From: Alloprevotella sp.
GTDB taxonomy: Bacteria; Bacteroidota; Bacteroidia; Bacteroidales; Bacteroidaceae
Reading direction: 5' to 3'
Length of the DNA stretch: 64,000 nt
Assembly: GCA_045600685.1 (NCBI GenBank)
Contig: JAZRYH010000081.1
Span: 4,365-68,364 of the forward strand
Under the pieces are notes generated by a model. It was not told the origin of the DNA. It saw only the letters and a list, made by a program, of their open reading frames with translations, and ran no database searches. A program made the position numbers and the translations under genes. Shown piece after piece: positions 4,087 through 26,959 of the stretch (position 1 is its first letter; the number at the start of each line of letters is the position of its first letter).

Positions 4087-4786
4087 GTTGATAGACTCTA
4101 CCATAGGCCAGCTCCGCGGTCCCCGCCTGCAAGAAGCGCTCGCCGCGCTTCCCGAATGGCGCAGGGCCGAGGCGCTGGCCTATAAGTTTGAGAGTGGGCA
4201 GGCACAGTGTGCCGCCGCCTACATCTTGCTCTGCCGTCTTCTGCGCGAGCACTATGGCATCACCGAACAACCCCATTTCATTATCGGAGAACACGGCAAA
4301 CCCGAATTAGACCTAACAAGCCCCCTCCCCGCTTCGGCAGGCCCCCTCCCCGCTCCCCCTTTGGGGGAGTGCCCAAAGAGCGAAGAACACGCGCTGCAGC
4401 TCTCCCCCAAAGGGGGAGCGGGGAGGGGGCCTGCCGAAGCGGGGAGGGGCCTTTTCTTCAACCTCTCCCATTGCACCGAAGCCGTAGCGGCCGTCGTGGC
4501 GGAGCAGCCCGTGGGCATCGACATAGAGATGCGCGGCCGCTACACCCCTTCACTTGCCGAGTACGTCTGTTCGCCCGCAGAACTGCAGGCTTTGGAGGCA
4601 GTCCCCGAGGAGCGCGACCTCCGCTTCACCACCCTCTGGACAAAAAAAGAGGCGGCCCTGAAGCTCCTCGGCACAGGCCTCACCGACGGCGAGGAACTCA
4701 AACGGATCCTCGCCACCGACCGTTTCCTTTTTGAAACGCAGGTATTCCCCCATTATGTCTGCACCGTAGCCACGCTCAAAGTGTAA
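4079..4786 (+). CDS. Sfp-type 4'-phosphopantetheinyl transferase with in-frame palindromic insert
   Basis: HGKP, FNLSH, VGIDIE and WTKKEAALK motifs; GTG start lies in a repeat and is uncertain. Confidence 0.88.
   Translation: MRLLIDSTIGQLRGPRLQEALAALPEWRRAEALAYKFESGQAQCAAAYILLCRLLREHYGITEQPHFIIGEHGKPELDLTSPLPASAGPLPAPPLGECPKSEEHALQLSPKGGAGRGPAEAGRGLFFNLSHCTEAVAAVVAEQPVGIDIEMRGRYTPSLAEYVCSPAELQALEAVPEERDLRFTTLWTKKEAALKLLGTGLTDGEELKRILATDRFLFETQVFPHYVCTVATLKV
4322..4449. repeat. Perfect 48-bp inverted repeat within the PPTase CDS
   Basis: 4322-4369 is the exact reverse complement of 4402-4449; 32-nt spacer. Confidence 0.95.
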
Positions 4787-4872
4787 TTTCGTGCTATATT
4801 TGCTACATTGCTACATCGTTTGTCATTGGTACTCTTCGCAAACGTCCTTCCCCAATTATGCAGATTGGTTTC

Positions 4873-5326
4873 CCTGCCAGTCCTCGCCTATAAGGACTGG
4901 AGCATTGGGCTGAAGGCCCGTAATTGTTTAGCCTAGGGCAGAGTGACCGAAGGGAACGCCGTCCTAGGTTTATAAAGCAAACGCTGGGTAAGTGTTCCTC
5001 CCCCCCGCGGGGGAGGTGGCGCGAAGCGCCGGAGGGGGGCTTTATCCTACAGGCCAGTGAATTGGGGCGCTGCCCCGAAACAATTATGCCGCGTTGCGGC
5101 GCCGCAAGTGCGGCAACCATGTACCCTAGGGCGGCGTTCCCTTCGGTCACTCTGCCCTAGGCTGGACACTTCTGGACTTTCAGCCCGTGTCATCTAGGGT
5201 AAGCCTCAAAAGAACGTAACATTCCTGCCAGTCCTCGCCTTTAGGACTACAGTCCTCCCCCTTAGGACTGGAGTCCTCCCCCTTAGGATTGCAGTCCTCG
5301 CCCTTAGGATTGGAGTCCTAAGGGGG
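4873..5326. repeat. Composite intergenic repeat cluster (REP-like inverted pair plus 21-bp tandem palindromes)
   Basis: 39-bp IR 4930-4968/5125-5163 with 1 mismatch; AGTCCT recurs every 21 bp at 5230-5314; one more unit at 4873-4902. Confidence 0.85.
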
Positions 5327-5402
5327 AAAACTCAAATTAAGAGCGAGGAAAAACGGTTGCAAGGCCGATATGGGCCGGGCAAAGCCGAAGACAGAAAAGA
5401 CA

Positions 5403-5430
5403 GAGGGCACTCCTGATTGGGAGTGCCCTC
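5403..5430 (-). terminator. Probable intrinsic terminator after the GH5 gene
   Basis: GAGGGCACTCC/GGAGTGCCCTC stem followed by T-rich sequence on the minus strand. Confidence 0.65.
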
Positions 5431-5450
5431 TATTGTATTCGGAGGAGGGA

Positions 5451-6818
5451 TTACTTTTTGCCTTTGGCGCGGCGCAGGGCCTTGGCAGCCGTTTTGACGG
5501 CGCGGAGGGTGCCTTTGTCGGAGGAGAAGACGGAGTAGAGGCCTTGCTCCTCGTGGTTGGGGTCGCAGGTGTAGGGGTCGCCGGGCTGCCAGGTGTCGTG
5601 GGGTGGACAGGCGAGGCCGCCCCAGCCCCAGAAGTTGCAGCCGACGATTTGCGGATGGGACTGCATCTGGCGGAAGATGAAGGCGTAGTAGGCATCGCGC
5701 CACGTGGTGGACGACTCGCGGGTGATGGCGTAGCCATCGCGGGGGTAGCCGAACTCCTCGATTACTATGGGACGGCCGCTTCCCTCGAGGGCTTTGCAGG
5801 CCCCGTCGATATAGCGGAGACTCTCGTCGCAGGCGCTCTGAAAACCTTTCTCGGTGCCGTCGATGCCGTTGGCACGGCGCGCCTCGGCGGTGGGGGACTT
5901 GAAGAATCCCATCCATCCCCACGTGTGGGGCCAGATATGGATGCAGGCGTAGTCTATCTCGGGCAGCGTGTGGAGGCGGCGGAAGAGGTCCATATCCACT
6001 TCGCACCCGTAGAGGCCTTCGCTGCCGGTGGTGACGAGGTGGTTGGGGTCGAGGCTCTTGATGAGGGCGGAGAAGTTCCGGGCCCAGTCGAGGAAGGCCT
6101 CCTTCACGGCGGGCTGGCGGCTGAAGGCGCGGGGCTCGTTGGCGAGTTCCCAGGCCATGATGGCGGGGCTCTCGGCATAGGGACGGCCTGTGACGGTGTT
6201 GGTGCGGGAGACAATGCGGCGGACGTGGTTGGCCACGAGGGCCTTGGCGCGGGCATTCTGCACGAAATGGGAGTGGAAATCCACGAAGCCCTGCCAGTCG
6301 GAGGGCTCGGGGGCCTGTCCTTCGCCGGCCCATTCCAGATAAGCGCCGTAGCCGCCGCTCCACTCCCACGAATTGGTGAGGTAGAGCACAGCCGTCATTT
6401 GGCGGCGCTCCAGTTCGGCGAGGAAATAGTCGAGGCCGCGCAGGAGGGTGTCGTTGTACACGCCGGGCTCGGGCTGGAGGATGGGGCGTATGTGGGTGAG
6501 GCGTTCGGTGCTGCCCTCGGCACCGACGAGGACGCGGAGGTTGCGGATGCCCACCTTCTGCATGGCGTCCAGTTCGCGGGAGAGGCGCTGGCGGTCGCCG
6601 CCCTGTCCCTCGGAAGCCAGGATGGGGCCGTACCAGAAGTTGGTGCCTACGTAGGTGTAGGGCTTATCATCCAAAAGGAATTGGCCGTTGCGGACAGTGA
6701 TGAAAGGACCAACAGACCCTCCCTCACCCATAGAGGGAAGGGGGTAAGCGCCCTTTGCGGGTACAAAAGAGAAAAGGGCGCAAAAGGCCCCTATTATATA
6801 TATAATAATGTGTCGCAT
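5451..6818 (-). CDS. GH5 endo-beta-1,4-mannanase
   Basis: Signal peptide; GTNFWYG, WELANEPR (acid/base) and IEEFG (nucleophile). Confidence 0.88.
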   Translation of the reverse strand: MRHIIIYIIGAFCALFSFVPAKGAYPLPSMGEGGSVGPFITVRNGQFLLDDKPYTYVGTNFWYGPILASEGQGGDRQRLSRELDAMQKVGIRNLRVLVGAEGSTERLTHIRPILQPEPGVYNDTLLRGLDYFLAELERRQMTAVLYLTNSWEWSGGYGAYLEWAGEGQAPEPSDWQGFVDFHSHFVQNARAKALVANHVRRIVSRTNTVTGRPYAESPAIMAWELANEPRAFSRQPAVKEAFLDWARNFSALIKSLDPNHLVTTGSEGLYGCEVDMDLFRRLHTLPEIDYACIHIWPHTWGWMGFFKSPTAEARRANGIDGTEKGFQSACDESLRYIDGACKALEGSGRPIVIEEFGYPRDGYAITRESSTTWRDAYYAFIFRQMQSHPQIVGCNFWGWGGLACPPHDTWQPGDPYTCDPNHEEQGLYSVFSSDKGTLRAVKTAAKALRRAKGKK

Positions 6819-6847
6819 AACCAGCAGAAGATTTTACTCCCCTCCCT

Positions 6848-7165
6848 TTATGGGAGGGGTTGGGGGTGGGTCTGTAGGGTCTTCTCCCACTCCAAATACG
6901 CCAGAATGAGGTTCTGCAGACCAAAGCCCTTCATTTTGGCGTGGTAGATGACCTCGTAGCAGAGGTCAATGAGAGGCTTGGGGTTGTCGGCCGTAGCAAT
7001 GAGGGCGCGAATGTTGCACTTCAGTTTGTCGAGCGTCTGCTCGGTGACGTAGCCCGTGCTGTCCACAAGGTCGCGGAACAGGGCGTAGTCCTGAAGAGTC
7101 TGGAAATGGCGCTCGTCCACCTCAAGGTGATGAGTGCCCGATGCGTTGAGTTGGATGGTAAACAT
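6848..7165 (-). CDS. Hypothetical protein (105 aa)
   Basis: Start placed at MFTIQLNASG; the longer ORF start runs through a repeat. Confidence 0.7.
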   Translation of the reverse strand: MFTIQLNASGTHHLEVDERHFQTLQDYALFRDLVDSTGYVTEQTLDKLKCNIRALIATADNPKPLIDLCYEVIYHAKMKGFGLQNLILAYLEWEKTLQTHPQPLP

Positions 7166-7171
7166 AATTGA

Positions 7172-7247
7172 AGCCCCACCCCGTCTAAGCTGCCTTCGGC
7201 ACTTTTCCACCCCTCCCCGACAGGGAGGGGAAGATACCTCTAAAGGT
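7172..7247. repeat. Copy of the ~77-bp GC-rich arm
   Basis: Matches 3864-3940 and 10038-10195. Confidence 0.85.
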
Positions 7248-7318
7248 TGTATCTTGGGGTTTGGGGGTATTAGGTTGTGAGAATATTGGGCAACAAACTT
7301 TAGGCATTATTCCTTCCC

Positions 7319-8110: not shown

Positions 8111-8122
8111 GAGGAAAAGCGT

Positions 8123-8869: not shown

Positions 8870-8873
8870 ACTA

Positions 8874-9395: not shown

Positions 9396-9421
9396 ATTGA
9401 TTTGTGTTTAATATTATACGT

Positions 9422-10027
9422 TTATAGCGGCACGCGGTTGATTATAGAGCGGCCGAGGGTTATTTCGTCGGTATATTCCAGGTCGTCGCCCACGGAGACG
9501 CCGCGGGCCAGAGTGGAGAGTTTCACGCCGTAGTCGCGGAGGCGGCGGGAGATGTAGAAGTTGGTGGTGTCGCCCTCCATCGTGGGGTTGAGGGCGAAGA
9601 TTACTTCCGCCACACCGCCCTCTGCCACGCGCTGCACGAGTCTCTCTATTTCCAGGTCGCTGGGGCCGATGCCGTCCATCGGCGAGATGACGCCGCCCAG
9701 CACATGGTAGAGCCCTTGATACTGGCCCGTAGCCTCCACGGCCATCACGTTCTGCACGTTTTCCACCACGCAGATGAGGGAGTGGTCCCTACGCGGCGAG
9801 GCACATATCTCACAGAGGTCGGTGTCGCTGATATTGTGGCAACACTGGCAGTAGTGCACCTCCTGTCGCAGCGTGGCGAGGGCGTCGGTGAGGGCCAGCA
9901 CGTCAGACGTCTCCTTGCGCAGCAGATGCAGCACGAGGCGCAAGGCGGTCTTGCGTCCCACGCCGGGCAGTTTGGCCATCTCGCCTACTGCGCGTTCAAG
10001 GAGTTTTGAAGGGTATTGGTCTATCAT
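9422..10027 (-). CDS. recR: Recombination protein RecR
   Basis: LPGVGRKTA HhH, C4 zinc finger, TOPRIM; start placed at MIDQYPS. Confidence 0.95.
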
Positions 10028-10037
10028 AGAATTAACC

Positions 10038-10349
10038 AGCCTCACCCCGTCAAAGCTTCCTTCGGAACTTTGCCACCCCTCCCCTTTTAGGGAGGGGAAG
10101 ATACCTCTATAGGGTGGAAGCCTCACCCCGTCAAAGCTTCCTTCGGAACTTTGCCACCCCTCCCCGAATAGGGAGGGGAAGATACCTCTAAAGGTTGTGA
10201 GGGCTTGGGGTTATAGGGGTATGAGGTTATAGGGTTGTAGGGTTATGAGGTTATAGGGTTATGGGGTCTTGAACCTTTAGGAGTATATCCCCCTCCCTAT
10301 TCGGGGAGGGGTGGCGCGGTGCCGTAGGCAGCCGCGACGGGGTGAGGCT
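10038..10349. repeat. Three ~77-bp arms (two tandem, one inverted) with 8-mer spacer
   Basis: 10038-10115 and 10119-10195 direct, 10273-10349 inverted; GGGTTATA-like 8-mers between. Confidence 0.9.
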
Positions 10350-10773
10350 ATTTACATTTCGCACACAGCCCGCGCACCACATAGGCGGCGGAGTGCTGAT
10401 GGAAGCCCTCGGGCAGAGCGACGGCGGGCAAGGGGTCAGCCTTGAGGCACCACACCTTCTTGCAACGCTCACATTCGAAGTGCGGATGCAGGTCGGCAAG
10501 GCCGTCGTGTTGGTCGTGGCAGTGGCAGTCGGCGGCGCAGAGGGCGTAGCGCGTCAGGCCCTGGCTGTCCTCAATGCTGTGGAGCAGACCTTTCTCCCAA
10601 AGCAGCGTCAGCGTGCGGAACAAGGTGCTCTTATCCACCGTCCCCAGTTTCGCCTCCAACTCGGAGAGCGAATAGGCGCGGTCATCAGGCCCGAAAGTGC
10701 TCAAAACAAGCTGCCTAATGGCCGTGGGACGGATGCCGTGAGCCTCTAAACGGGCATCTACCTCTGATTTCAT
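10348..10773 (-). CDS. Fur-family transcriptional regulator
   Basis: IRPTAIR, STLFRTL, HPHFECERC and C-terminal CAKC. Confidence 0.85.
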   Translation of the reverse strand: MKSEVDARLEAHGIRPTAIRQLVLSTFGPDDRAYSLSELEAKLGTVDKSTLFRTLTLLWEKGLLHSIEDSQGLTRYALCAADCHCHDQHDGLADLHPHFECERCKKVWCLKADPLPAVALPEGFHQHSAAYVVRGLCAKCK

Positions 10774-10900: not shown

Positions 10901-10923
10901 CCACGAAAAACTTACTTAAGCCC

Positions 10924-13200
10924 ATGAAACACACGCTTATTTTACTTCTTTCTTGCTTCCTGGGTAGTGCTTCGGCCTATTCCTTCGACCCCACTACCCT
11001 CGTGAATCCCTTTATCGGTACGACGAACTTCGGCACGTGCAATCCCGGCGCCGTGGTGCCGCAGGGCATGATGTCCGCCACGCCTTTCAACGTGATGGGC
11101 AGCGACTTGAACCACTACGACAAGGACGCCCGCTGGTGGAGTACGCCTTACGACAACACTAATTCTTACTTCACTGGTTTCTCCCACGTGAACCTTTCCG
11201 GCGTGGGCTGTCCCGACCTCGCCTCGCTCCTCTTGATGCCCACCTCCGGCGCTCTCGACGTGGACTACCACAACTACGGCTCCACCTACACCGCCGAGGA
11301 GGCTCACCCAGGATACTACACCAACCGCCTCACCAAGTACGGCATCACCACCGAGGTGACCGCCACCGAGCGCACCTCCCGCGCACGCTTCACTTTCCCC
11401 TCCGGCACCGGCCACATCCTCCTCAATCTGGGCGAGGGCCTCACCAACGAGAGCGGTGCCTGGGTGCGCTACGTGAGCGACACCGAGATTGAAGGCCAGA
11501 AGATGCTCGGCAACTTCTGTTACAATTCCCCCCGCGCGTATTACCCTATTTATTATGTCGTGCGCGTGAGCCGCTCTCCCGTCTCCCGCGGTTTCTGGAA
11601 ACTCCAGCGCGACGCCTATGGCGTGGAGAAGGAGTGGAACCCCGAGGCCGGCCGCTACAAACTCTACGACGGCTACCGCCGCGACCTGGCCGGCGACGAT
11701 ATCGGTGCCTACTGGAACTATGACCTCCAGGCCGGCGAGCAGGTGGAGGTCAGCATAGGCGTGAGTTTCGTAAGTGTAGCCAACGCACGTCTCAATCTCG
11801 ATGCCGAACAACCCGCCTCCGCCACCTTCGATGCCCTCTGCTGTCAGGCTCACGACAAGTGGCAGAAAGCGCTCTCCACCATTGAGGTAGAAGGCGGCAC
11901 ACCCGACGAGCGCACCGTCTTCTACACCGCCCTCTACCACACGCTCATCCACCCCAACATCCTCAACGACGTAAACGGCGACTACCCGCTCATGGAATCC
12001 GAAGGCGCGGGCAACCTCTCCCAAAAGGCTAACGCATCTTCCCCCTTTAAGGGGGATAAGAGGGGGTCTCACTTCACCGTCTTCTCCCTCTGGGACACCT
12101 ACCGCTGCACACACCAGCTCTTCACCCTTCTCTGGCCCGACCGTCAGGAGCAGATGCTCCGCTCCATGCTCCGGATGTACCGCGAGAGCGGCTGGCTACC
12201 CAAATGGGAACTCTACGGCCGCGAGACCTTCACGATGGAGGGCGACCCCGCCATCCCCGTCTTCGTGGACTCTTGGCTGAAGGGTCTTCGCGGTTTCGAC
12301 ATCGAGGAGGCCTACGCCGCCATGCGCAAGGGTGCCGTCACGCCCGGCAAGGACAACCCCCTGCGCCCCGACAACGACGACTACGTGCGCCTGGGCTACT
12401 GCCCGCTCCTGGAGCAGTACGACAACAGCGTGAGCCACGCCCTCGAATACTACGTGGCCGACGCCGCCCTCGCCACCCTCGCCGACTCCCTCGGCAAGAA
12501 GGACGACGCGCGCCTCTTCCGCGCCCGTTCCCTCGGCTACAAGCACTACTACAGCCCCGAATACGGCACGCTCCGCCCGCTTCTGCCCGACGGCTCCTTC
12601 CTTTCGCCCTTCAATCCCCGCCAGGGCGAGAACTTCGAGCCCTCACCCGGCTTCCACGAAGGCAACGCCTGGAACTACACCTTCTACGTGCCGCACGACA
12701 TTCCCGGCCTCTGCCGCCTGATGGGCGGTAAGAAGAAGTTCGTGGACCGCCTTCAGAGCGTCTTCGACCAGGGCTTCTACGACCCCGCCAACGAGCCCGA
12801 CATAGCCTTCCCCTATCTCTTCTCGCGCTGGACGGACGAGGCCTGGCGCACCCAGAAACTCACGCGCCAACTCCTCCGCAAGCATTTCCGCAACACTCCC
12901 GACGGCATCCCCGGCAACGACGACACCGGCACGATGTCGGCCTGGGCCGTGTTCTCCATGCTCGGCCTCTACCCCGACTGCCCCGGCCAGCCCTTCTACA
13001 CCCTCACGGCACCCGTATTCGAGAAGGCCACGCTCCACATTCCCGGCGGCGACATCGTAATCTTCGCCCCCGGTGCCGCAAAGAGCGACCGCGTAGGCCG
13101 CGTCAGCCTCGGCGGGAAAGCGCTCAAGACCTACCGCATCTCCCACGCCGACCTCATGCACGAGCGCAACCTTCAATTCACCTTTGCCCCCGCGCAGTAA
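10924..13200 (+). CDS. GH92 alpha-mannosidase
   Basis: Signal peptide; VNPFIGT, FSLWDTYR, EGNAW, NEPD, GNDDTGTMSAW. Confidence 0.93.
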   Translation: MKHTLILLLSCFLGSASAYSFDPTTLVNPFIGTTNFGTCNPGAVVPQGMMSATPFNVMGSDLNHYDKDARWWSTPYDNTNSYFTGFSHVNLSGVGCPDLASLLLMPTSGALDVDYHNYGSTYTAEEAHPGYYTNRLTKYGITTEVTATERTSRARFTFPSGTGHILLNLGEGLTNESGAWVRYVSDTEIEGQKMLGNFCYNSPRAYYPIYYVVRVSRSPVSRGFWKLQRDAYGVEKEWNPEAGRYKLYDGYRRDLAGDDIGAYWNYDLQAGEQVEVSIGVSFVSVANARLNLDAEQPASATFDALCCQAHDKWQKALSTIEVEGGTPDERTVFYTALYHTLIHPNILNDVNGDYPLMESEGAGNLSQKANASSPFKGDKRGSHFTVFSLWDTYRCTHQLFTLLWPDRQEQMLRSMLRMYRESGWLPKWELYGRETFTMEGDPAIPVFVDSWLKGLRGFDIEEAYAAMRKGAVTPGKDNPLRPDNDDYVRLGYCPLLEQYDNSVSHALEYYVADAALATLADSLGKKDDARLFRARSLGYKHYYSPEYGTLRPLLPDGSFLSPFNPRQGENFEPSPGFHEGNAWNYTFYVPHDIPGLCRLMGGKKKFVDRLQSVFDQGFYDPANEPDIAFPYLFSRWTDEAWRTQKLTRQLLRKHFRNTPDGIPGNDDTGTMSAWAVFSMLGLYPDCPGQPFYTLTAPVFEKATLHIPGGDIVIFAPGAAKSDRVGRVSLGGKALKTYRISHADLMHERNLQFTFAPAQ

Positions 13201-13281: not shown

Positions 13282-13375
13282 TTGTCTCGTGACTGCTGTC
13301 ACGAGAACGCGTGACTACTGTCACGGAAACGCGCGACTGCAGTCACGAGAACGCGCGACTGCAGTCACGAGACAA
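13282..13375. repeat. Four 22-bp palindromic tandem units
   Basis: CGTGACTGCTGTCACGAGAACG-like units at 13288, 13310, 13332 and 13354. Confidence 0.9.
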
Positions 13376-13460
13376 CTGAAAGGGCTAAAGAAACGACTCT
13401 TCCTCCATAAGCATTACCCGCAAGAGAGACAGCGTTCTGTAAATCCATCAACCTTCCACC

Positions 13461-15452
13461 ATGTCCGCACCTCATACCCCACCCTCCTCCCAGAATCTTC
13501 CTCTCCCCGACAGGGGAGGCGCGGCTTCGGCGTCTGTCAGCAACGGGAAGAGGCATGAACTGAATCTTTCCGCCCAACTCTCTCTCCTCCGCCTGGAATA
13601 CGAGCACGAGAAGGCCGAGTTCCGTCGCGCCACCGAGCTGCAGGGCATCGCCCGCAAGGTGAAGCGCGGCGAGGCGTGGCATCCCGTGGCCGTGGGCCGG
13701 TCGTACTACAACTCGCTGGACCGCCTCGTGGTGGAAATCCTGCGCACGGAGGACACGGAGGACGAGCACTGCTTCGAATACGGCCGCCAGGTGTGCTTCT
13801 TTCAGGAGGATATGAGCGGCGGACTGCACTACCTCAACTTCGTGGGCACCGTGAGTTACGTAGAGGCCGACGCGCGCCTCGCCGGCGGGGCCCGTATGGT
13901 GGTGCAGCTGCCCAATGAAAAGGCTCTGGCCGAACTGCAGGCCCTGGAGCGCCCCGGCGTGCAACTGCATTTCGACGAGACCACCTACCAACTGATGTTT
14001 GAGGCCCTCAGCAAGGTCATCGCCACGAAGGACGGACGCCTGGCCGAACTTCGTGACATCTTTCACGGCGGGCAGCCCGTCCGGTGGGCCTCCGCGCCCG
14101 CCCTGCCCGTATCGCTGCCGTGGCTGAACGCCTCGCAGCAGGAAGCCGTGAGGCAGGTGCTACGGGCAAAGGACGTGATGGTGGTGCACGGCCCTCCGGG
14201 CACGGGCAAGACCACCACGCTGGTGGAGGCCATCGACGAGGTGCTGCGCCGCGAAGTGCAGGTCATGGTGTGCGCCCAGAGCAATACGGCCGTTGACTGG
14301 ATCAGTCAGCAACTGGCCGACCGCGGCATACAGGTGCTGCGCGTGGGGAACCCCACCCGCGTGACCGACGAGATGCTTGCCAACACCTACGAACGGCGCT
14401 TTGAGGCCCACCCCGACTACCCGCAGCTCTGGCAGATACGCCGCACGCTGCGCCAACTGCGCTCGCAGCCCCGCAAGGGACGCACGGAGGGATACCATCA
14501 GAAGGTGGCACGCCTCAGGGAGCGGGCCGACGAACTGGAACTGCGCATCCGCACGGCGCTTTTCGACGGCTGTCGCGTGGTGGCCTGCACGCTGGCCGGA
14601 AGCGCCAACCCCGTGCTTATGGGGCAGCGCTTCCACACCTTATTCATTGACGAGGCTGCACAGGCCCTGGAGGCCGCCTGCTGGATAGCCCTCCAAAAGG
14701 CCGACCGCGTCATCCTGGCCGGCGACCATCAGCAGTTGCCGCCCACCATCAAGTGCTACGAAGCCATGCGCCAGGGCCTGGGCCGAACACTGATGGAACA
14801 GATCGTGGCGCGCCACCCCGAGGCCGTCATGATGCTCAACGTGCAATACCGAATGAACGAGACGCTGATGCGCTTCTCCTCGGAGTGGTTCTACGACGGG
14901 CGCCTGACGGCCGCCGAGGAGGTGCGCCACCGCTCACTGCTCTCGCTGATGGACGAGCCCCTGGTGTGGCTGGACTGCGCCGCCGAGGAGGAATTCGTAG
15001 GCACCAACTTCGGGCGCGTAAACCGCCAGGAGGCCGCACTCACGCTGCAAGCCCTGCGCGACTACTGCCAGCGGCTCGGCATGGAGCGGATAAGGAATGA
15101 ACGCGTGGACTTCGGAATAATATCGCCCTACCGCGCACAGGTGCAACTGCTGCGCCACGTCATCAAGCACGACGAAGTGCTACGCCCCATCCGCAAGAGC
15201 ATCACCGTGAACACCGTGGATGCCTTCCAGGGTCAGGAGCGCGACGTGGTGTGCGTGAGTCTGGTGCGCGCCAACGACAGCGGACAGATAGGTTTCCTGT
15301 CCGACTTGCGCCGCATGAACGTGGCGATGACACGTGCACGGATGAAACTCATCCTCGTCGGCGACTCCGCCACACTCACCCGCCACCGCTTCTACAAAGC
15401 CCTCTATGAGCGCTGCTACAAGCCTGAAACGGAGAAAAAGGAGGGGGAATAG
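13461..15452 (+). CDS. SF1 helicase (Upf1/IGHMBP2-like)
   Basis: GPPGTGKT, IDEAAQ, GDHQQLPP, QYRM, VDAFQGQE, NVAMTRAR. Confidence 0.92.
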   Translation: MSAPHTPPSSQNLPLPDRGGAASASVSNGKRHELNLSAQLSLLRLEYEHEKAEFRRATELQGIARKVKRGEAWHPVAVGRSYYNSLDRLVVEILRTEDTEDEHCFEYGRQVCFFQEDMSGGLHYLNFVGTVSYVEADARLAGGARMVVQLPNEKALAELQALERPGVQLHFDETTYQLMFEALSKVIATKDGRLAELRDIFHGGQPVRWASAPALPVSLPWLNASQQEAVRQVLRAKDVMVVHGPPGTGKTTTLVEAIDEVLRREVQVMVCAQSNTAVDWISQQLADRGIQVLRVGNPTRVTDEMLANTYERRFEAHPDYPQLWQIRRTLRQLRSQPRKGRTEGYHQKVARLRERADELELRIRTALFDGCRVVACTLAGSANPVLMGQRFHTLFIDEAAQALEAACWIALQKADRVILAGDHQQLPPTIKCYEAMRQGLGRTLMEQIVARHPEAVMMLNVQYRMNETLMRFSSEWFYDGRLTAAEEVRHRSLLSLMDEPLVWLDCAAEEEFVGTNFGRVNRQEAALTLQALRDYCQRLGMERIRNERVDFGIISPYRAQVQLLRHVIKHDEVLRPIRKSITVNTVDAFQGQERDVVCVSLVRANDSGQIGFLSDLRRMNVAMTRARMKLILVGDSATLTRHRFYKALYERCYKPETEKKEGE

Positions 15453-17348: not shown

Positions 17349-18311
17349 ATGAAAAACTGGATACTCGTATTTGTCGGCACCGCCATCATGTGTGCCGGAT
17401 TCGTATTCTTCATTAACCCCTACAACATCGTACCGGGCGGCACCTACGGCTGCAGCATCGTGCTCCACTCGCTGTTTCCCTCCGTGCAGGTAGGCACCTT
17501 CGGCTATTTCTTCGACATCCCCCTGCTCATCCTCTCCGCCGTGCTACTGGGCAAGAAGATTGGTGCCAAGACCCTCGCCAGCGTGCTCTCCACACCGCTG
17601 ATAATGAACGTCTTCTCCTGGCTCATCTACCCCTCGCCCGAGGCTCTGCAAGCCCTCGACCCCGCACAAATGATAGGCGGCAACCTCGACCTCACGTCGC
17701 ATCTCATCCTCGCCGTGATAATGGGCAGCGTGCTCATCGGCATCGGCTGCGGCATCGTCGTGAAGGCCGGTGCCACCAGCGGCGGCAGCGACATAGTGGC
17801 CATGATAATGCAGAAGTTCGCCCACATACGCTTCTCACGCAGCCTCATCATCGTGGACGGTGCCATCGTCATCTGCGCCCTCGGCGTCTTCATGGCACAA
17901 GCACTCGGCGTGCTCCCCAGCAGCGGCGACAAAGCCACAAGCCCCACCACGTTGATGCTCTATTCGCTCATCAGTATCTACATCATTGCCGTCGTCGTGG
18001 CCCGCACCATCAGCGGCTCAAAGGACGACAAGATGATGTTCGTCATCAGCGACAAGGACCTCACCGCCCTCCACGACTTCATCCTCGGTCCCCTCGACCG
18101 CACCGCCACCATCCTTCCCGCCACCGGCCTCTACAGCGGCAACGACAAGGAAATGCTCTGCATCGTCGTGCCCTACAAGCAAGTGGACGTCGTCAAGCGC
18201 AAGGTGCGCGAGACCGACGAGACCGCGTTCGTCATCGTCACCGACGCCTACGACACCTACGGCGAGGGCTGGAAGTCCCTGCCGAAGGAAGACGAGATTG
18301 AGGCGGAATAA
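17349..18311 (+). CDS. YitT-family membrane protein
   Basis: IVPGG, GATSGGSDIVA and C-terminal AFV...GEGW. Confidence 0.85.
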   Translation: MKNWILVFVGTAIMCAGFVFFINPYNIVPGGTYGCSIVLHSLFPSVQVGTFGYFFDIPLLILSAVLLGKKIGAKTLASVLSTPLIMNVFSWLIYPSPEALQALDPAQMIGGNLDLTSHLILAVIMGSVLIGIGCGIVVKAGATSGGSDIVAMIMQKFAHIRFSRSLIIVDGAIVICALGVFMAQALGVLPSSGDKATSPTTLMLYSLISIYIIAVVVARTISGSKDDKMMFVISDKDLTALHDFILGPLDRTATILPATGLYSGNDKEMLCIVVPYKQVDVVKRKVRETDETAFVIVTDAYDTYGEGWKSLPKEDEIEAE

Positions 18312-18449
18312 GACCCACAGACACCCAACAGCCCCCCCCCAGCCCCTCCCTAAATGGAGGGGAGTGGAATGGGGGAGCACTTTGCCCGAAAATCCGAAAT
18401 ATCGAAAACTCGAAATATCGAAATCCCGAAAACTCAATAACTCCAAAAT

Positions 18450-19679
18450 ATGTCACAGGAAGAAAACAGACAAACAGAAGTATCTACTCCCCGCCCTTTA
18501 GGGAGGGGTAAGGGGGAGGGTCTTTATTCTCTCCGCGGCGTATCCGCTATGAAAGAAGACGTGCACGCCGCCATCAAGAACATTGACAAGGGCCTCTTCC
18601 CCCAGGCCTTCTGCAAGATAATCCCCGACATCCTCGGCGGCGACCCCGACTACTGCAACATCATGCACGCCGACGGCGCCGGCACCAAGTCATCCCTCGC
18701 CTACGCCTATTGGCGCGAGACGGGCGACATCTCCGTGTGGAAAGGCATCGCACAGGATGCCCTCATCATGAACACCGACGACCTCCTCTGCGTAGGCGCC
18801 GTCGATAACATCCTCGTATCCTCCACCATCGGCCGCAACAAGATGCTTATCCCCGGCGAAGTCATCAGCGCCATCATCAACGGCACCGACGAACTCCTCG
18901 CCTGGATGCGCGAGATGGGCATCGGCATCCATGCCACCGGCGGTGAGACGGCCGACGTGGGCGACCTCGTGCACACCATCATCGTCGATAGCACCGTCAC
19001 CTGCCGCATGCGCCGCGCCGACGTCATCGACAACGCCAACATCCGTCCCGGCGACGTCATCGTGGGCCTCGCCTCCTTCGGCCAGGCCTCCTACGAGAGC
19101 GCCTACAACGGCGGCATGGGCTCCAACGGCCTCACCTCCGCCCGCCACGACGTGTTCGCCAAGTACCTCGCCGAGCGCTACCCCGAGACCTACGACCACG
19201 CTGTGCCCCAGGAACTCGTGTACAGCGGCCGCTGCCATCTCACCGACGCCGTGCCCGACGCCCCCGTCGATGCCGGCCACCTCGTCCTCTCCCCCACCCG
19301 CACCTACGCGCCCTTCGTGCGCCGTATGCTCGACCTCGTGCCCCGCTCGGAGATTCACGGCATGGTGCACTGCACCGGCGGCGCACAGACCAAGGTGCTC
19401 CATTTCGTAGGCCCCAACTGTCGTGTCATCAAGGACAACATGTTCCCCCTGCCGCCCCTCTTCCGCCTCATCCATGAGGAGAGCCACACCGACTGGAGCG
19501 AGATGTACAAAGTCTTCAACATGGGCCACCGCCTTGAAGTCTATGTCCGCCCCGAACTGGCCGAGCAAATCATCCAGATAGCCCAGTCCTTCAACATTGC
19601 CGCCCAAGTAGTGGGCCACATAGAGAAAGGCCCCCGCAGCCTTACCATCAAGAGCGAGTTCGGCGAGTTCAACTATTAA
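18450..19679 (+). CDS. purM: AIR synthase (Bacteroidetes type)
   Basis: HADGAGTK, GGETADV, HCTGGAQTK, VFNMGHR. Confidence 0.92.
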   Translation: MSQEENRQTEVSTPRPLGRGKGEGLYSLRGVSAMKEDVHAAIKNIDKGLFPQAFCKIIPDILGGDPDYCNIMHADGAGTKSSLAYAYWRETGDISVWKGIAQDALIMNTDDLLCVGAVDNILVSSTIGRNKMLIPGEVISAIINGTDELLAWMREMGIGIHATGGETADVGDLVHTIIVDSTVTCRMRRADVIDNANIRPGDVIVGLASFGQASYESAYNGGMGSNGLTSARHDVFAKYLAERYPETYDHAVPQELVYSGRCHLTDAVPDAPVDAGHLVLSPTRTYAPFVRRMLDLVPRSEIHGMVHCTGGAQTKVLHFVGPNCRVIKDNMFPLPPLFRLIHEESHTDWSEMYKVFNMGHRLEVYVRPELAEQIIQIAQSFNIAAQVVGHIEKGPRSLTIKSEFGEFNY

Positions 19680-19917: not shown

Positions 19918-20856
19918 TCAAATGGAAGACGGGTGCTTCAATGCGTAGAAAGCCACGGCGCTGGCGGCGGCCACATTGAGGGAATCTACGCCGTTGGCCA
20001 TGGGGATGCGTACTACGTAGTCGGCATCATTGATGCTCTCGCGGGGGAGGCCGTCGCCCTCGGTGCCCATGATGAGGGCGAGGCGGGACTCGGAGCGCAG
20101 GGCGGGGTCGTCGAGCGTGACGGAATCGTCGGTGAGGGCGAGGGCGGCGGTGCGGAAACCCTCGCGGCGCAGGGCGGCATAGAGAGAGAGGTCGTCACCT
20201 TCCCACACCGTCCAGGGCACGAGGAACACATTGCCCATACTCACGCGGAGGGCCCTGCGGTTGAGGGGGTCGCACGAGCGGAGGAGTATCACGCCGTCCA
20301 CGCCGAGGGCGGCGGCGGAGCGGAAAATGGCCCCGACGTTGGTGGCCTCTACGACGTTGTTGAGGATGACAAAGAGAGAGGTGCGCTGGCTTTTGGGCAT
20401 AAGGGCGGCGAGAGGGCGCGGGGCAGGGCGCTTCATGGCGCACAGTACCCCCCTGGTAAGCCTAAAGCCGGTAATCTGCTCCAGCAAGGCGTCGTCGGCG
20501 GTGAGGACTTCCATTTCGGGGCAACGCGCTATGATGGGGGCGGCATCTCCCTTGATATGGCGCTCGGTAGTGAGGAGCGACACGGGCTCCGCGCCGGCAT
20601 TAAGAGCCACGTTGATGACCTTGGGACTCTCGGCAATGAAGAGTCCCTGCTGGCTGCAGAGCTGCGCCTCCGTCAGGCGGCAATAGGGCGCAACGGCGGG
20701 GTCGGAGAGGGAGGTTATGTAATTACCCCTTCCGGCGCTACGCGCCACCTCCCCCGGCCTCTCTCTGACTTCGCCATCTCTCCCCTGCTGGGGAAAGAGT
20801 TCGCTCTGCGAGCGAGGGAGGCCCTGCGGATTATACTCTCTTTTTTCTATTGTCAA
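19918..20856 (-). CDS. TrmH/SpoU RNA 2'-O-methyltransferase
   Basis: NVGAIFRSA, MGTEGDGL, IPMANGVDSLNV. Confidence 0.9.
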   Translation of the reverse strand: MTIEKREYNPQGLPRSQSELFPQQGRDGEVRERPGEVARSAGRGNYITSLSDPAVAPYCRLTEAQLCSQQGLFIAESPKVINVALNAGAEPVSLLTTERHIKGDAAPIIARCPEMEVLTADDALLEQITGFRLTRGVLCAMKRPAPRPLAALMPKSQRTSLFVILNNVVEATNVGAIFRSAAALGVDGVILLRSCDPLNRRALRVSMGNVFLVPWTVWEGDDLSLYAALRREGFRTAALALTDDSVTLDDPALRSESRLALIMGTEGDGLPRESINDADYVVRIPMANGVDSLNVAAASAVAFYALKHPSSI

Positions 20857-20918
20857 GGTTAAGGTTAAAGTTAAGGTTAAAGTTAAGGTTAAAGTTAAGG
20901 TTAAAGTTAAGGTTAGGT
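20855..20918. repeat. AA(G/A)GTT hexamer tandem repeat
   Basis: About ten consecutive units between fmt and trmH. Confidence 0.9.
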
Positions 20919-20920
20919 TA

Positions 20921-22030
20921 TTATAACTTTACACCCCTTAAGAAGTCGGCGGCGGGCATGCGTTTCTTGCCGGCGAGTTGTACGACGAGGAGTTCCTGCA
21001 CACCATCAGGCTGCTGCACGTAGAGGTGACCATCCTTTACGAAGAGAGAAGCCCCCTCCCCGCTCCCCCTTTGGGGGAGAGCCGCAGAGGGCGATGAAGA
21101 ACCCACGCTGCAGCACTCCCCCAAAGGGGGAGCGGGGGCTTTTGCCGAAGGGCAAAATGCAGGGCCGTGGGGGGCCGTCTTATATATCTTCATCACCTGC
21201 ATCTTCCCGCCTATCTCAAACTCGCTCCATGCACCGGGGTAAGGGGAGAGGCCGCGAATGAAGTCGTAGGTCTGCTTGACGGAGCGCGACCAGTCTATGC
21301 GACAGGTATCCTTGAATATCTTCGGTGCCTGGCGCTGGTGGTCGGCCACGGGAAGGGTCATCTCCTCCTGCGGAATGGGGCGGACGCGCCCGGCGAGGAT
21401 GTTGTCCACGGTCTCGGTGACGAGGCGGCCGCCGAGGCGCATGAGGCGGTCGTGGACGGTCTCGGCATTGTCGTCGGGAGTGATGGGTATGCGCTCCTGC
21501 TGGATGATGTGGCCGGTGTCGATGGCGTGCTGGAGGAAGAAGGTGGTGATGCCCGTCTCGGTGTCGCCGTTGATGATGGCCCAGTTGATGGGGGCGGCGC
21601 CGCGATAGCGCGGCAGGAGGGAGGCGTGGAGGTTGAAGGTGCCGAGGCGCGGCATCTGCCACACCACTTCGGGCAGCATGCGGAAGGCCACGACAATCTG
21701 GAGGTCGGCACGCAGGGCGCGGAGTTCCTCAATGAAGTTCTCGTCCTTGAGGCGCTCGGGCTGGAGCACGGGGAGGCCCTGACTGACGGCGTACTGCTTG
21801 ACGGGGCTCTGCGAGAGTTCCGTCTGGTGGCGTCCGATGGGCTTGTCGGGCATCGTGACGACGCCCACGACGTTGTAGCCGCCTTCCACAAGGCAACGCA
21901 GGGCCTCCACGGCGAAGTCGGGAGTGCCCATATAGACTATTCTGAGCCCCCCTCTTATCCCCCCAAGGGGGGAGGATGTTGTCGGGGGAAGGAAGTCTCC
22001 CTTTAAGGGAAATTTAGAGGGTCTTTCCAT
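20921..22030 (-). CDS. fmt: Methionyl-tRNA formyltransferase
   Basis: YMGTPDFA, NLHASLLPRYRGAAPI, IRGLSPYPGA. Confidence 0.95.
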   Translation of the reverse strand: MERPSKFPLKGDFLPPTTSSPLGGIRGGLRIVYMGTPDFAVEALRCLVEGGYNVVGVVTMPDKPIGRHQTELSQSPVKQYAVSQGLPVLQPERLKDENFIEELRALRADLQIVVAFRMLPEVVWQMPRLGTFNLHASLLPRYRGAAPINWAIINGDTETGITTFFLQHAIDTGHIIQQERIPITPDDNAETVHDRLMRLGGRLVTETVDNILAGRVRPIPQEEMTLPVADHQRQAPKIFKDTCRIDWSRSVKQTYDFIRGLSPYPGAWSEFEIGGKMQVMKIYKTAPHGPAFCPSAKAPAPPLGECCSVGSSSPSAALPQRGSGEGASLFVKDGHLYVQQPDGVQELLVVQLAGKKRMPAADFLRGVKL

Positions 22031-23082
22031 TTCGTAATAATATTTTCAATAAGCCGCGGGAGGGCGTAGCGGTCGAGGTCGTCCCAGCGGACAAAGGTGT
22101 AGCCGGGTATCTCGGTGCCCTCCTCCACTGCCACGGCGGTGGCGCGGCAAAGGATGGTGCGGTGGGTGAGATGATGGGTGAAGGAAGCCCCCTCCCCGCT
22201 CCCCCTTTGGGGGAGAGTTTCAAAGCCATTGGCACCTTTGCCCAAAGACACGTCCCTATCTCCGGCTCTCCCCCAAAGGGGGAGCGGGGAGGGGGCCGAG
22301 GAGTCGGTTGCAACGATTTCCCACAGCCCTGCCCATATTCCTTTCTTTCCTCTCTGCCGCAGGTAGAGTCCCGTGGGAGTGTGGACGAGGACGTAGTCCA
22401 TACGGACTTCGGTGGGCTTTATGCGGCGTGCCTTCACGGGGAGGTCCTCCACCCTACTCTCTGCCAGGGCGAGGCAGGAGGCGGCCACGGGGCAGTCGGG
22501 GCAACGGGGAGCACGGGGTGTGCAGAGCGTGGCGCCGAAGTCCATCATAGCCTGATTGTGGCGGGCGGGGTGCTTTTTGTCCAGCACCTCGTGGGCGAGG
22601 GCGGCGAAGGTGCGCTTTCCGGCGGGAGTGTCGATGGGCGTATCGATGCCGAAATGGCGGGAGAGCACGCGATAGACATTGCCATCGACTACGGCGCAAG
22701 GTTCACCGAAGGCGATGGAGGCTATGGCGGCGGCGGTGTAGTCGCCCACGCCGGCAAGGGTGCGCAGGCCTTTGAAATCAGTGGGGAAACCGCCTCGCTC
22801 TACCACTTGGCGTGACGCCTTATATATATTACGTGCGCGCGTATAATACCCCAGCCCCTGCCAGAGACGCAGCACCTCGTCCTCACTGGCGGCGGCCAGA
22901 GCCTCCACCGTGGGGAAACGCTCAAGGAAGCGCAGGTAATAATCGGTGCCTTGCTTGACGGTGGTCTGCTGGAGGATGACCTCGCTGAGCCACACCTTGT
23001 AAGCGTCAGGCGCGGCCCGCCATGGCAAGTCGCGCCCGTTATGCTCGTACCACAGGGCCAAAGCCTCCGATAAGGGGTGCAT
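22003..23082 (-). CDS. mutY: A/G-specific adenine glycosylase
   Basis: SEVILQQT, WQGLGYY, VDGNVYRV and CTPRAPRCPDCPVAASC Fe-S motif. Confidence 0.95.
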   Translation of the reverse strand: MHPLSEALALWYEHNGRDLPWRAAPDAYKVWLSEVILQQTTVKQGTDYYLRFLERFPTVEALAAASEDEVLRLWQGLGYYTRARNIYKASRQVVERGGFPTDFKGLRTLAGVGDYTAAAIASIAFGEPCAVVDGNVYRVLSRHFGIDTPIDTPAGKRTFAALAHEVLDKKHPARHNQAMMDFGATLCTPRAPRCPDCPVAASCLALAESRVEDLPVKARRIKPTEVRMDYVLVHTPTGLYLRQRGKKGIWAGLWEIVATDSSAPSPLPLWGRAGDRDVSLGKGANGFETLPQRGSGEGASFTHHLTHRTILCRATAVAVEEGTEIPGYTFVRWDDLDRYALPRLIENIITKWKDPLNFP

Positions 23083-23160
23083 GTTAGTTAAAAGTTAACA
23101 GTGAACAGTTAACAATAAAAAGTTTTTCAGGATAAACGGCTATTCAACTATGCAACGCTC

Positions 23161-24216: not shown

Positions 24217-24231
24217 AAGAAGGGCAGAATA

Positions 24232-24618
24232 CTAATTTGTCTTTCCGTTTACCGTCATCACGCCCTGTATGTAAAGGCGCGTCAGAGGCTCTTCGCTGTT
24301 GCTGCGCACGGTGATGGCCTTTTTAAAGGTGCCGGGGAACTTACCCTTGCCCGTGTACTGTACCTTTATCTCACCCTTCTCACCGGGCTTGATGGCCTCC
24401 TTGGGGAACGTGGGCACGGTGCAACCGCAACTGCTGTAGGCCTGATGAATAATCAGGGGTTCGTCGCCCGTGTTCGTGAAAGAGAACACGCAAACCTTCA
24501 CTTCGTTCTCGTCAAAAGAGCCGAAGTCGTGCGTCGTCTTGGCAAAGGTTATCTTGGCCTGTGCCATCATTGCCGTAGCCACCATTGCAACGACAAAAAA
24601 TGTGAAAATCCTTTTCAT
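24232..24618 (-). CDS. DUF1573-like exported protein
   Basis: Signal peptide; HDFG, SSCGCT, IKPGEKG. Confidence 0.85.
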   Translation of the reverse strand: MKRIFTFFVVAMVATAMMAQAKITFAKTTHDFGSFDENEVKVCVFSFTNTGDEPLIIHQAYSSCGCTVPTFPKEAIKPGEKGEIKVQYTGKGKFPGTFKKAITVRSNSEEPLTRLYIQGVMTVNGKTN

Positions 24619-24723
24619 AGGCTTTAATGAAATATAAATTTGTGGCAAAGATAGTAAAAAATAAGTAGATAAAGGCGCATGAATGACATATTTTTTGTAA
24701 TTTTGCCGCACACTCCTATTCAA

Positions 24724-25368
24724 ATGGTCACCCCATCCGCCAGAATCACCGCCACCGAGCGCATAATTATGGGCATAGACCCCGGCACCAATGTCCTCGG
24801 CTATGGTGTCCTGCGCGTCGTTGGCCGAAAGGCCGAAATGCTCACCCTCGGTGTGATTGACATGCGCAAGGTGCCCGACATCTATCTCAAGCTCGGCCGC
24901 ATCTACGAGCGCGTCATGGGCATCATCGACTCCTTCCACCCCGACGAACTCGCCATTGAGGCGCCGTTCTTCGGCAAGAACGCCCAGACGATGCTCAAGC
25001 TCGGCCGTGCGCAGGGCGTGGCCATCGCCGCCGCCATGGCCCGGCAGGTGCCCATTCACGAGTACGCCCCCATGCAAATCAAGCAGGCCATTACCGGCCG
25101 CGGTGCGGCTTCAAAGGAACAGGTGGCCGCCCTTCTCCAGCGCCAACTGGGCATCTCCGACGAGACTCTCAAGTCCGTCCCCTTCCTCGATGCCACCGAC
25201 GCTTTGGCCGCGGCCTACTGCCACCACCTCGGCACGATGTTCCCAAAGAAAAACGAAATCGCAGGCCTCCATACCACCAAGACCGGCGAGACACGGCGCG
25301 CAAAATCGCAGTCGTGGGCACAGTTCGCCGCCAACAACGCCGGACGAATCCATGGAGATAAAAAGTAA
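24724..25368 (+). CDS. ruvC: Holliday junction resolvase
   Basis: GIDPG, AIEAPF, LGRAQG, DATDALA. Confidence 0.95.
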
Positions 25369-25387
25369 AAGCAAAACAATCCACAAT

Positions 25388-25867
25388 ATGAAGCGCAAAT
25401 TATTTATACTTATTGCCCTTTTAGCCTTAAGCACCACATGTTCGCAAGTACGCGCACAGGAAGTATATAAAATGGTAATGGAGTCCGCCACCCGTGTCGT
25501 AAATAACCCAACGAGCAACTACACCCTCACGCGTGTGGCTCAATTCAAGCGCACCGCCCTCACCTATATGCGCGGCAAGGCTCTTGAAAACCCCGACAGC
25601 GCCACGGTGCACTTCCTCGACACGCAAGCCTACTACCTCAACGAGTTCACCGACCGCTTCTTCCGCGAGATTCTCAAGGTAAGCGGCAACGCCCGCAAAG
25701 ATTGCATCATGACCTTCGTCAAGGCATCCTCCGAGAATCCCATATGGAACGACCCCGACAAGGGCACCACCGAGAGCTACATCGGCACTGGCGAACTCAC
25801 CCCCTTCTCCCTCGACACCGACTGGGAAAAAGCCTACAAGAGCATAGAGGACACCTTGGGGAAATAA
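25388..25867 (+). CDS. Exported hypothetical protein
   Basis: Signal peptide MKRKLFILIALL...VRA. Confidence 0.75.
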   Translation: MKRKLFILIALLALSTTCSQVRAQEVYKMVMESATRVVNNPTSNYTLTRVAQFKRTALTYMRGKALENPDSATVHFLDTQAYYLNEFTDRFFREILKVSGNARKDCIMTFVKASSENPIWNDPDKGTTESYIGTGELTPFSLDTDWEKAYKSIEDTLGK

Positions 25868-25932
25868 CCAACGAGCGGGCTGTCCCCAAATTTTTAATTT
25901 TTAATTTTTAACTTTTAATTTTTAACTCTCCT

Positions 25933-26286
25933 TTGTACATCGTCTCCAAAACCCTCCAGGTCAGTTACGCCCATCGCCTCTCGCTCCCCTATGAGAGCGC
26001 CTGCACACAGTTCCACGGCCACAACGGCATCATCACCGTCTTCTGCTGCGCCGAGGAACTCAATGCCGAGGGCATGGTCATCGACTTCCACCACGTCAAG
26101 GACCTCGTAAAGTCCCATTTCGACCACACCTGCGTCAACGACCGTTTCCCCTTCAACCCCACGGCCGAGAATATGGCCCGTTGGATATGCGACAACGTGC
26201 CCCATTGCTTCAAGGTGCGATTCCAGGAGAGTGAGGGCAACACCGCCACATACATCAAGCCGGGATATGAAAACCTATCCTGTTAA
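25933..26286 (+). CDS. queD: 6-carboxytetrahydropterin synthase
   Basis: AHRL, C...HGHN, FDH, PTAENMA; TTG start. Confidence 0.88.
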   Translation: MYIVSKTLQVSYAHRLSLPYESACTQFHGHNGIITVFCCAEELNAEGMVIDFHHVKDLVKSHFDHTCVNDRFPFNPTAENMARWICDNVPHCFKVRFQESEGNTATYIKPGYENLSC

Positions 26287-26959
26287 CGAGATATTCTACA
26301 GTCTGCAGGGCGAAGGCATCAATGCCGGTCGCCCTGCCGTCTTCGTACGCTTCAGCGGCTGCAACCTCCGCTGCCCCTTCTGCGACACCGACCATACGGC
26401 CCACACAATGATGACGGCAGAGGAGATAATTAATAAAAGCCCTCTCCCCGCTCCCCCTTTGGAGGAGAGCTGCAACGCGGGGTCGCATTCGCTCTCTGAA
26501 CTCTCCCCCAAAGGGGGAGCGGGGCGGGGGCTTCTAATTCTCACCGGCGGCGAGCCCTCTCTCTTTATCGACGAAGCCCTCATCGCCGCCCTCCACGCCG
26601 CAGGCTTTGAGATAGCCATCGAGACCAACGGCACACGCCCCCTTCCCGCCGGCATCGACTGGGTAACCCTTTCTCCCAAAGACGCCTTCTGCCCCGATGC
26701 CACGCCCGTCATCACCGCCTGCGACGAGCTCAAGATAGTATTCACCGCCACCGGCCCCACCGACCCAGCCCTTGCCGACCTTGAGAAATGGGAGAGTGTC
26801 TTTCCCTCCACTTCTCCTCGGGGGCTTCTCATCCAGCCCTGCGACACCGGCAACCCCGAGCAGAATGTCGCCGTCACCCGCGCCGCCGTCGCCTGGGTCA
26901 AGGCCCATCCACTATGGCGGATTTCCTTACAGATACACAAGTTTTTAGGCATACGATAA
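26267..26959 (+). CDS. queE: 7-carboxy-7-deazaguanine synthase (radical SAM)
   Basis: EIFYSLQGEG, CNLRCPFCD, TGGEP, IETNG, LQIHK. Confidence 0.93.
   Translation: MKTYPVNEIFYSLQGEGINAGRPAVFVRFSGCNLRCPFCDTDHTAHTMMTAEEIINKSPLPAPPLEESCNAGSHSLSELSPKGGAGRGLLILTGGEPSLFIDEALIAALHAAGFEIAIETNGTRPLPAGIDWVTLSPKDAFCPDATPVITACDELKIVFTATGPTDPALADLEKWESVFPSTSPRGLLIQPCDTGNPEQNVAVTRAAVAWVKAHPLWRISLQIHKFLGIR

Follow-up and report, generated by a model that had tools for sequence, protein, structure and literature searches.

A hairpin element that overwrites in-frame sites in Alloprevotella genes and is likely spread by a DUF559 nuclease

Introduction

In-frame palindromes (Rickettsia palindromic elements, RPEs), triplex repeats (BoxC) and repeat-bracketed enzymes (repetitive extragenic palindromes, REPs, with REP-associated tyrosine transposases, RAYTs) are known separately. 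Here we analyse a stretch of 64,000 nucleotides from Alloprevotella sp. (assembly GCA_045600685.1, contig JAZRYH010000081.1, positions 4,365 to 68,364 of the forward strand; the window), which carries a hairpin element with arms of about 30 nt. The arm occurs in three forms: single, as an inverted pair with a spacer, and as an inverted pair with a DUF559 gene. The element overwrites in-frame sites, and it is probably spread by the DUF559 nuclease through nicking and copy repair.

By structure, the closest known repeat is BoxC/PIT, a triplex motif. In the available text of Holder et al. 2015 (PMC4666352), TM-ECO motifs of this kind in E. coli K-12 are always intergenic and occur in inverted pairs with local instability; the word nuclease is absent from that text, which reports no gene for mobility. 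The Alloprevotella arm shares the class II order (C-stem, loop, G-stem, loop, mirror G-stem), the single and inverted-pair copies and the local instability including symmetric deletions, as far as the same text describes them. However, its stems have 7 triplets instead of the 9-nt E. coli consensus, and the arms of the type found in the four host genes below (P arms) are mostly intragenic, with only 3 of 41 intergenic.

RPEs are about 150 bp long, end in CGTC, encode a conserved peptide and, in the available portions of PMC10969869 and PMC3733652, have no known mobiliser. Like the present element, they are palindromic repeats translated in frame within unrelated conserved genes, and the original prediction named them as the precedent. 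The likeness extends to in-frame residence only: the elements here are 30–136 nt long, the P arm has no CGTC end, the arms are read in at least 3 frames and overwrite native codons, and there is a putative nuclease partner.

REP/REPIN/RAYT systems, as presented in the accessible part of PMC3733652, also combine singlets and inverted doublets with an enzyme gene that stands between repeats of its own type, and have several enzyme-repeat pairs in one genome. In contrast to them, the enzyme here is a Vsr-like PD-(D/E)XK nuclease and not an HUH tyrosine transposase, and the element is mostly intragenic and lacks a GTAG tag. DUF559 has been placed together with 3HRL and 3R3P in the Vsr/EDxHD group of I-Bth0305I (PMC3424549, group 58; PMC3239194; both in their available parts). 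EDxHD homing endonucleases thus share nuclease group and catalytic motif with DUF559, and as an analogy we propose their spread by break and copy, in which target bases are lost, whereas DUF559 stands in no intron or intein, lacks a NUMOD DNA-binding region and occupies many unrelated sites instead of one allele. In the main texts of the open-access literature we found no paper that links DUF559 with repeats; Bacteroidetes repeats may be listed in the supplements of PMC3733652 and PMC4666352.

Four in-frame copies in housekeeping genes

Eight arm matches were found in the window (7 exact and 1 with one mismatch) against 0 in 100 shuffles, and they form four inverted pairs at 4348–4423, 21058–21137, 22194–22289 and 26446–26524. 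Every pair lies within an open frame. As the original prediction had stated, the hosts, identified here by Pfam/NCBIfam, are the genes of 4'-phosphopantetheinyl transferase (PPTase; 4079..4786, + strand, the sole ACPS match in the genome), methionyl-tRNA formyltransferase (fmt; 20921..22030, − strand), MutY (22003..23082, − strand) and QueE (26231..26959, + strand, likely start at 26267), and the arms are read in the frames that it had given (PAPPLGE, PSPLPLWG, SPKGGAGRG and LPQRGSGEG). In the source genome (G000, a 2.36-Mb binned draft, 85% complete) each host gene was found once, mutY as a single full-length copy, and a search of G000 for second copies (a pseudogene here with an intact copy elsewhere) found none.

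The extents of the copies needed some correction. In PPTase the element covers 4318..4453 (+ strand) with 55-nt inverted arms, whose core arms (4340–4369 and 4402–4431) enclose a spacer at 4370–4401 that is inverted in the related genome G051. The copy in the C-terminal domain of fmt (21049..21176, − strand) has arms at 21050–21079 and 21116–21137, lacks part of one tip, carries an extra hairpin up to about 21176 and is 21 nt shorter in sequencing run X11. The remaining two copies are located in the C-terminal domain of MutY (22185..22297, − strand) and in QueE, in the loop that joins the first helix to the GGEP strand (26437..26534, + strand). Two further features had been missed: a C-type double hairpin at the fmt start (21944..22023, − strand), and another footprint in queE, in collapsed form (about 26797–26827, + strand), which reads SPRGLL and whose site holds a C-type arm or a native-like loop in close relatives.

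The spacers, described before as mostly different, are not unrelated: those of the four copies represent two homologous cores, each occurring in both orientations. The stems of the window elements are very stable (z −6 to −15), and the four elements contain 0–2 stop codons across six frames. A structured RNA family was rejected, as an Rfam search of window positions 3500–27500 gave no match.

Key residues are retained in two of the host proteins. QueE retains CxxxCxxC and GGEP despite the element, and MutY retains what we take to be its catalytic region and iron-sulfur cysteines. In predicted structures, the mapping that had been suggested places the QueE and MutY inserts in segments of low confidence (block pLDDT, the predicted local distance difference test, of 57–66 in QueE and 48–62 in MutY, the latter segment predicted disordered), while the folds are intact and the cores near 90. 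We suggest that the insert peptides, whose translation is predicted, are tolerated as disordered surface segments and not selected.

Replacement of native DNA

The element replaces native DNA instead of being a clean insertion. At the fmt start, the 80-base double hairpin of the window stands in frame where five runs (X1, X2, X4, X11 and X15) have 11 other bases, a net difference of +69. In mutY, a 113-nt element gives a net gain of only 39 nt (+13 aa) compared with the related genome G050: the segment has 47 residues in the window and 35–40 in 17 measurable relatives (23 aligned), and most of the native segment of 35–40 aa is displaced. Similarly, between G051 and G000, a Lon-like frame (named by eye from the sequence) carries a 104-nt element with a net change of +63 nt. 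The comparison of runs was made without X19 and X21–24, and half of the sampled words were reached in none of the runs searched.

Alignment of orthologs revealed relatives without the window's inserted segments. This, together with the differences between strains at the sites, agrees with the earlier view of a recently active DNA-level element; the part of that view in which new loops are simply added did not hold, since codons are overwritten. A preference for A-rich targets was rejected as weak (A at 0.28 vs 0.21 at −14 to −3), with a clear A/G bias only at −3 to −1. In the PPTase gene of G050 (L093), a different, decayed hairpin arm lies in the same loop.

We then consider a classical REP or a MITE (a miniature transposable element with inverted repeats), moved by a RAYT (Y1 transposase) or another transposase. 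The element resembles MITEs in having terminal inverted repeats without coding capacity of its own, its architecture fits REP/RAYT, and G000 does contain one full Y1_Tnp (RAYT-type) gene. However, native DNA is lost and no target duplication was seen by eye in the alignments of filled and empty sites, and the arm has no GTAG/CGTC tag. Moreover, the Y1_Tnp gene is flanked by a different repeat of its own, of which the window has a copy at 5053–5186, and 40 hairpin matches were counted in genome G048 (80% complete), where Y1_Tnp has no match. A transposase of this kind is therefore very improbable as the mobiliser, and the RAYT suggested in the original prediction was rejected because the RAYT gene has its own repeat. 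Around that copy, the window carries at 4907–5186 an inverted repeat like the flanks of the RAYT-type gene (L009), with a triplex-type arm (4997–5041) lodged inside. GIY-YIG has one match in G000, within a 617-aa frame.

Census of arms in the genome and in GTDB

In G000 there are 23 exact arms and 88 arms at up to 4 mismatches, which fall into 66 clusters. In 28 of these 66 the cluster is a single GAG-loop arm within a longer intergenic repeat. Among the remaining 38 clusters, 33 lie in open frames of at least 100 codons with a positive coding score (from a custom hexamer gene model). We scanned 28 host frames outside the window, and 20 match NCBIfam; the hosts include ileS, prfC, priA, topB, radA, menC, menD, lpdA, aroA, asparaginase and a DEAD-box helicase. 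The GAG-loop repeat is itself several hundred bases long, with tandem AAAAGGG-containing units, one P arm and often a second arm, and no ORF was seen in it at its 28 places (e.g. C4:16327, C19:12257 and C53:1559).

A looser detector, biased toward C-rich tips, gave 260 related arms of types A, B, C, P and P2, while two shuffles gave 1 each. The count of coding versus intergenic copies that had been called for could thus be made: 38 of 41 P arms lie in open frames (28 internal, 10 upstream of the called start) and 3 are intergenic, while A arms are intergenic in 39 of 53 cases.

The exact arm occurs at no fewer than 133 loci in GTDB (23 of 64 parts scanned), and the 80 record titles listed are all Bacteroidaceae, Prevotellaceae, Alloprevotella or Bacteroidales. 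Among 60 sampled relatives it was found in G050 and G051 only. At the GTDB loci, 125 of 131 non-edge clusters are inside a frame of at least 100 aa, a figure of little weight because any of six frames was accepted and a homolog in G000 exists for only 56.

Changes at occupied sites

Occupied sites are rewritten by inversion of the spacer, by swaps of arm type and by collapse to fused tips. The spacers of PPTase and queE in G051 are the reverse complement of those in the window (alignment z of 9.3 and 9.4 inverted vs 0.9 and 1.7 direct), and both frames are open. Among 120 QueE homologs, the loop has 33 residues in 57, 57 residues in 8 and 32 residues in 4. The 57-residue loops comprise four protein clusters per orientation, with the window's own counted, and in the 32-residue loops the fused tips alone remain. 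In at least 5 more QueE proteins, this loop holds inserts of other kinds that look hairpin-like and are rich in Pro and Gly (by eye, from the peptides). One and the same QueE loop occurs in its native state, with the element in either of two orientations, in collapsed form and reoccupied by arms of other types.

These changes could suggest a selected phase-variable intragenic inverton, or a regulatory RNA hairpin, by which the host tunes its enzymes through the flip or the stem. One study reportedly describes intragenic inversions in gut bacteria. Both open spacer orientations persist at queE and PPTase, and the internal P arms are mainly in G-rich sense (21 of 28). Against it, the flip would change only a disordered loop in the predicted models, sites are lost, collapsed or occupied by other arm types among close relatives, and no strand-switch joint within one copy appears among the rows listed (contigs only). 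We consider this explanation quite improbable.

Frame preservation, another test that had been proposed, was examined between G051 and G000 in 394 kb chosen around known arms, which biases the comparison to filled sites; 32 sites are comparable. At 16 coding sites, 5 are of equal length, 10 differ by multiples of three and 1 differs otherwise, while 10 of the 16 non-coding or junction sites differ by non-multiples of three. Length changes are thus multiples of three at 10 of 11 coding vs 6 of 16 non-coding sites (Fisher p 0.008; the sites are not independent). At several comparable sites the arm type is different in each genome. The exception is a DEAD-box helicase (L316; G000:C57:430-2649) with two elements, the second of which puts the final ~35 codons in a frame other than that of G051; this tail frameshift fits a frame kept by selection, and an assembly error is possible. 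Generally, the data fit a frame kept by selection and aided by arms without stop codons.

RNA-library contigs skip 26425–26524 and 21944–22023, and the stems, as noted, are very stable; both would be expected if the element were removed from RNA or skipped by the ribosome, so that the peptides are never made. Yet the collapsed form of the queE site is present in DNA and RNA runs alike, and because the same joined forms occur in DNA runs, with strain-specific letters, the skip joints are alleles. Native residues are overwritten, and lengths in multiples of 3 are relevant only if the insert is translated. Removal or skipping is extremely unlikely, and RNA-level excision was rejected, the skip joints being in DNA runs too. 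RNA-library contigs of X15 enter the mutY and queE arms and end at the repeat, with the signal flat across divergent genes.

G000 is a binned draft, and assembly can mis-orient palindromes, which raises the question of an artefact of palindromic DNA. The chance of this is virtually negligible, as G051 and 7 further protein clusters of QueE have the same sites filled, and so, in part, do contigs from other studies.

Predicted triplex structure of the arm

Under the rules of Holder et al., the G-rich strand of the arm is predicted to form a class II intrastrand triplex that is perfect over seven triplets. With the ITxF rules (stems 6–15, loops 1–6, at most 1 mismatch), 6 of 8 window arms (5 of them perfect with 7 triplets) and 41 of 41 P arms qualify, the detector favouring C-rich tips. 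The exact TM-ECO consensus with 9-nt stems has 0 matches in G000, and exact TM-ECO motifs were found in 2 of 29 Bacteroidota DUF559 loci (L268 and L269).

In E. coli K-12, TM-ECO no. 9 is located ~170 nt downstream of ycjD (DUF559) in right-arm orientation, and no left arm was seen in the 67 nt before sapF. At this locus (L295:2705-3261) the ycjD gene ends in a decayed hairpin, followed by TM-ECO no. 9.

DUF559 genes between inverted arms

As the mobiliser, a DUF559-type nuclease had been named as one of two guesses, and this guess is strongly supported by arm-bracketed genes, phylum-wide hairpins and the nuclease tree. G000 contains seven full DUF559 genes and one fragment. All seven full genes stand at gene junctions, enclosed by inverted sister arms (types A, B and C), and 7 of 7 DUF559 genes of G050/G051 also stand between inverted sister arms (both by eye). 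DUF559 genes are bare free-standing frames of ~120–130 aa at many junctions, in which the E-x-D-G-x-x-H catalytic motif is retained; the solved relative is 3HRL (E 6.5e-18). In G000, one cassette (L003/L008; G000:C66:43359-43869) has its 3' end and right arm tandemly duplicated, and the right arm of another (L007; G000:C7:1319-1700) apparently gives a TTG start to the next gene, which is dTDP-glucose dehydratase-like (named by eye from the sequence).

Exact arms were found at 12 DUF559-holding loci among the 133 GTDB loci, in other Bacteroidaceae. These 12 represent eight distinct places and L256 (flank identical to that of L156) at two unrelated junctions; seven have an arm on either side, in one the right arm is disrupted, and one is cut off. 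In these cassettes the right arm encodes part of the N-terminus of the downstream gene; the C-terminus of the upstream gene is encoded by the left arm at the second of the two junctions.

Nuclease clades correspond to arm types, and they do so across separate sites in the genomes: in a tree of 52 rows, the 8 P-armed nucleases are one clade (100/97, 2 sites) and the 10 A-armed nucleases another (100/99, 6 sites).

A DUF559 match is present in 68 of 120 Bacteroidota genomes. We fetched 29 of these loci, and C/G hairpins lie on both sides in 22 and on one side in 5, compared with 1 of 214 control windows. Twelve Bacteroidota loci are in long frames, and the 11 scanned are fusions, with leuS (3), metH (2), acsA, hsdR (2), hsdM, a PglX-like methylase and a helicase as hosts. 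In L267, L271, L276, L280, L285 and L277, whole DUF559 domains lie in frame within LeuRS, MetH and AcsA; L280 and L285 occupy approximately the same place in MetH and carry different arms.

We also compared hairpin and DUF559 content in 61 genomes, which are kin and in many cases incomplete, using one triplex-hairpin pattern. At least 20 triplex-hairpins occur in 4 of 61 genomes, and all four hold DUF559 (7, 6, 1 and 1 genes), while the 41 genomes without a DUF559 match have at most 3.

Discussion

The short element is best read, from its arms and their arrangement, as the non-autonomous partner of the DUF559 cassette. We suggest that an arm, when single-stranded, would fold as a hairpin or triplex, that DUF559 with its Vsr/EDxHD fold would nick at or beside the folded arm, and that repair would copy the arm or pair from another locus via short tip homology, erasing native bases. 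Selection would then keep the frame.

Several points weigh against this reading. The nearest empty sites are 76–91% identical or come from metagenome contigs, and the exact junctions are uncertain for this reason. No P-armed DUF559 was found among the 7 full genes of G000 (85% complete), which implies that the enzyme is missing, lost or cross-acting. Two of the 29 Bacteroidota DUF559 loci have no hairpin, and 11 of 20 DUF559 genomes have no match to the triplex-hairpin pattern. When spacers are aligned with the interior of DUF559 cassettes, the best z is up to 4.3 (null up to 2.8), and only the first few inner bases agree. Finally, inversion and collapse follow from long inverted repeats and need no dedicated enzyme.

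The last point and the lack of a P-armed DUF559 in G000 also suit an account in which DUF559 is a passenger between the arms, and the triplex-hairpins spread via stalling of host replication and recombination. In the available text of PMC4666352, E. coli triplex motifs go with local instability, and no gene for mobility was found. This account nevertheless leaves unexplained why DUF559 is repeatedly the cargo between arms, why arm type tracks nuclease clade, why the catalytic motif is retained and why DUF559 is in every arm-rich genome, and we regard it as rather unlikely.

If overwriting driven by the DUF559 nuclease is true, this would be a new class of element. It is possible, and we propose it tentatively on the strength of sequence comparison, that the element needs no transposase or integrase: DUF559 would recognise its own triplex-hairpin arms and spread by nicking and overwriting, rewriting loops and termini of essential proteins, and it would be the mobiliser that BoxC/PIT has lacked, E. 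coli ycjD included. BoxC/PIT repeats have been known since the 1990s with no mobiliser; this would supply them with a candidate enzyme, and give DUF559/YcjD a function testable in E. coli K-12. It would also be a route for selfish DNA to rewrite, not merely extend, essential proteins on a strain-level time scale, and may explain why Bacteroidales annotations contain unusual inserts rich in Pro and Gly, and N-terminal extensions that are false. As a tool, a small enzyme that nicks in a structure-specific way and comes with paired arms could be useful.

Other features of the window

The part at about 31500–64000 is prophage-like, with tail-, capsid-, terminase- and portal-like frames (by eye from N-termini), and the hairpin-arm detector gave no arm there. 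Elsewhere in the window, an A-type inverted-arm element lies at 3861..4089, whose arm type also brackets five G000 DUF559 genes, and a further one at 10038–10352. A related inverted-arm element before purM (18308..18543, + strand) takes the place of an intergenic stretch and the first purM codons, and is absent from G051 and G050.

Element-related copies are present at the starts of fmt, purM and a SpoU-family methylase gene. Further hairpin relatives (20725–20820, 9425–10352, 6831–6882, 7172–7262, 12040–12068 and 13461–13520) lie at the starts of SpoU-family methylase, recR, GH5 and helicase genes and inside a GH92 gene, and several called N-terminal extensions in the window derive from hairpin elements. 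Short tandem arrays occur at 20852–20915, 10193–10275, 5230–5334, 13288–13384 and 31267–31414; several adjoin or lie inside hairpin elements, and the length of the array at 20852 differs between runs.

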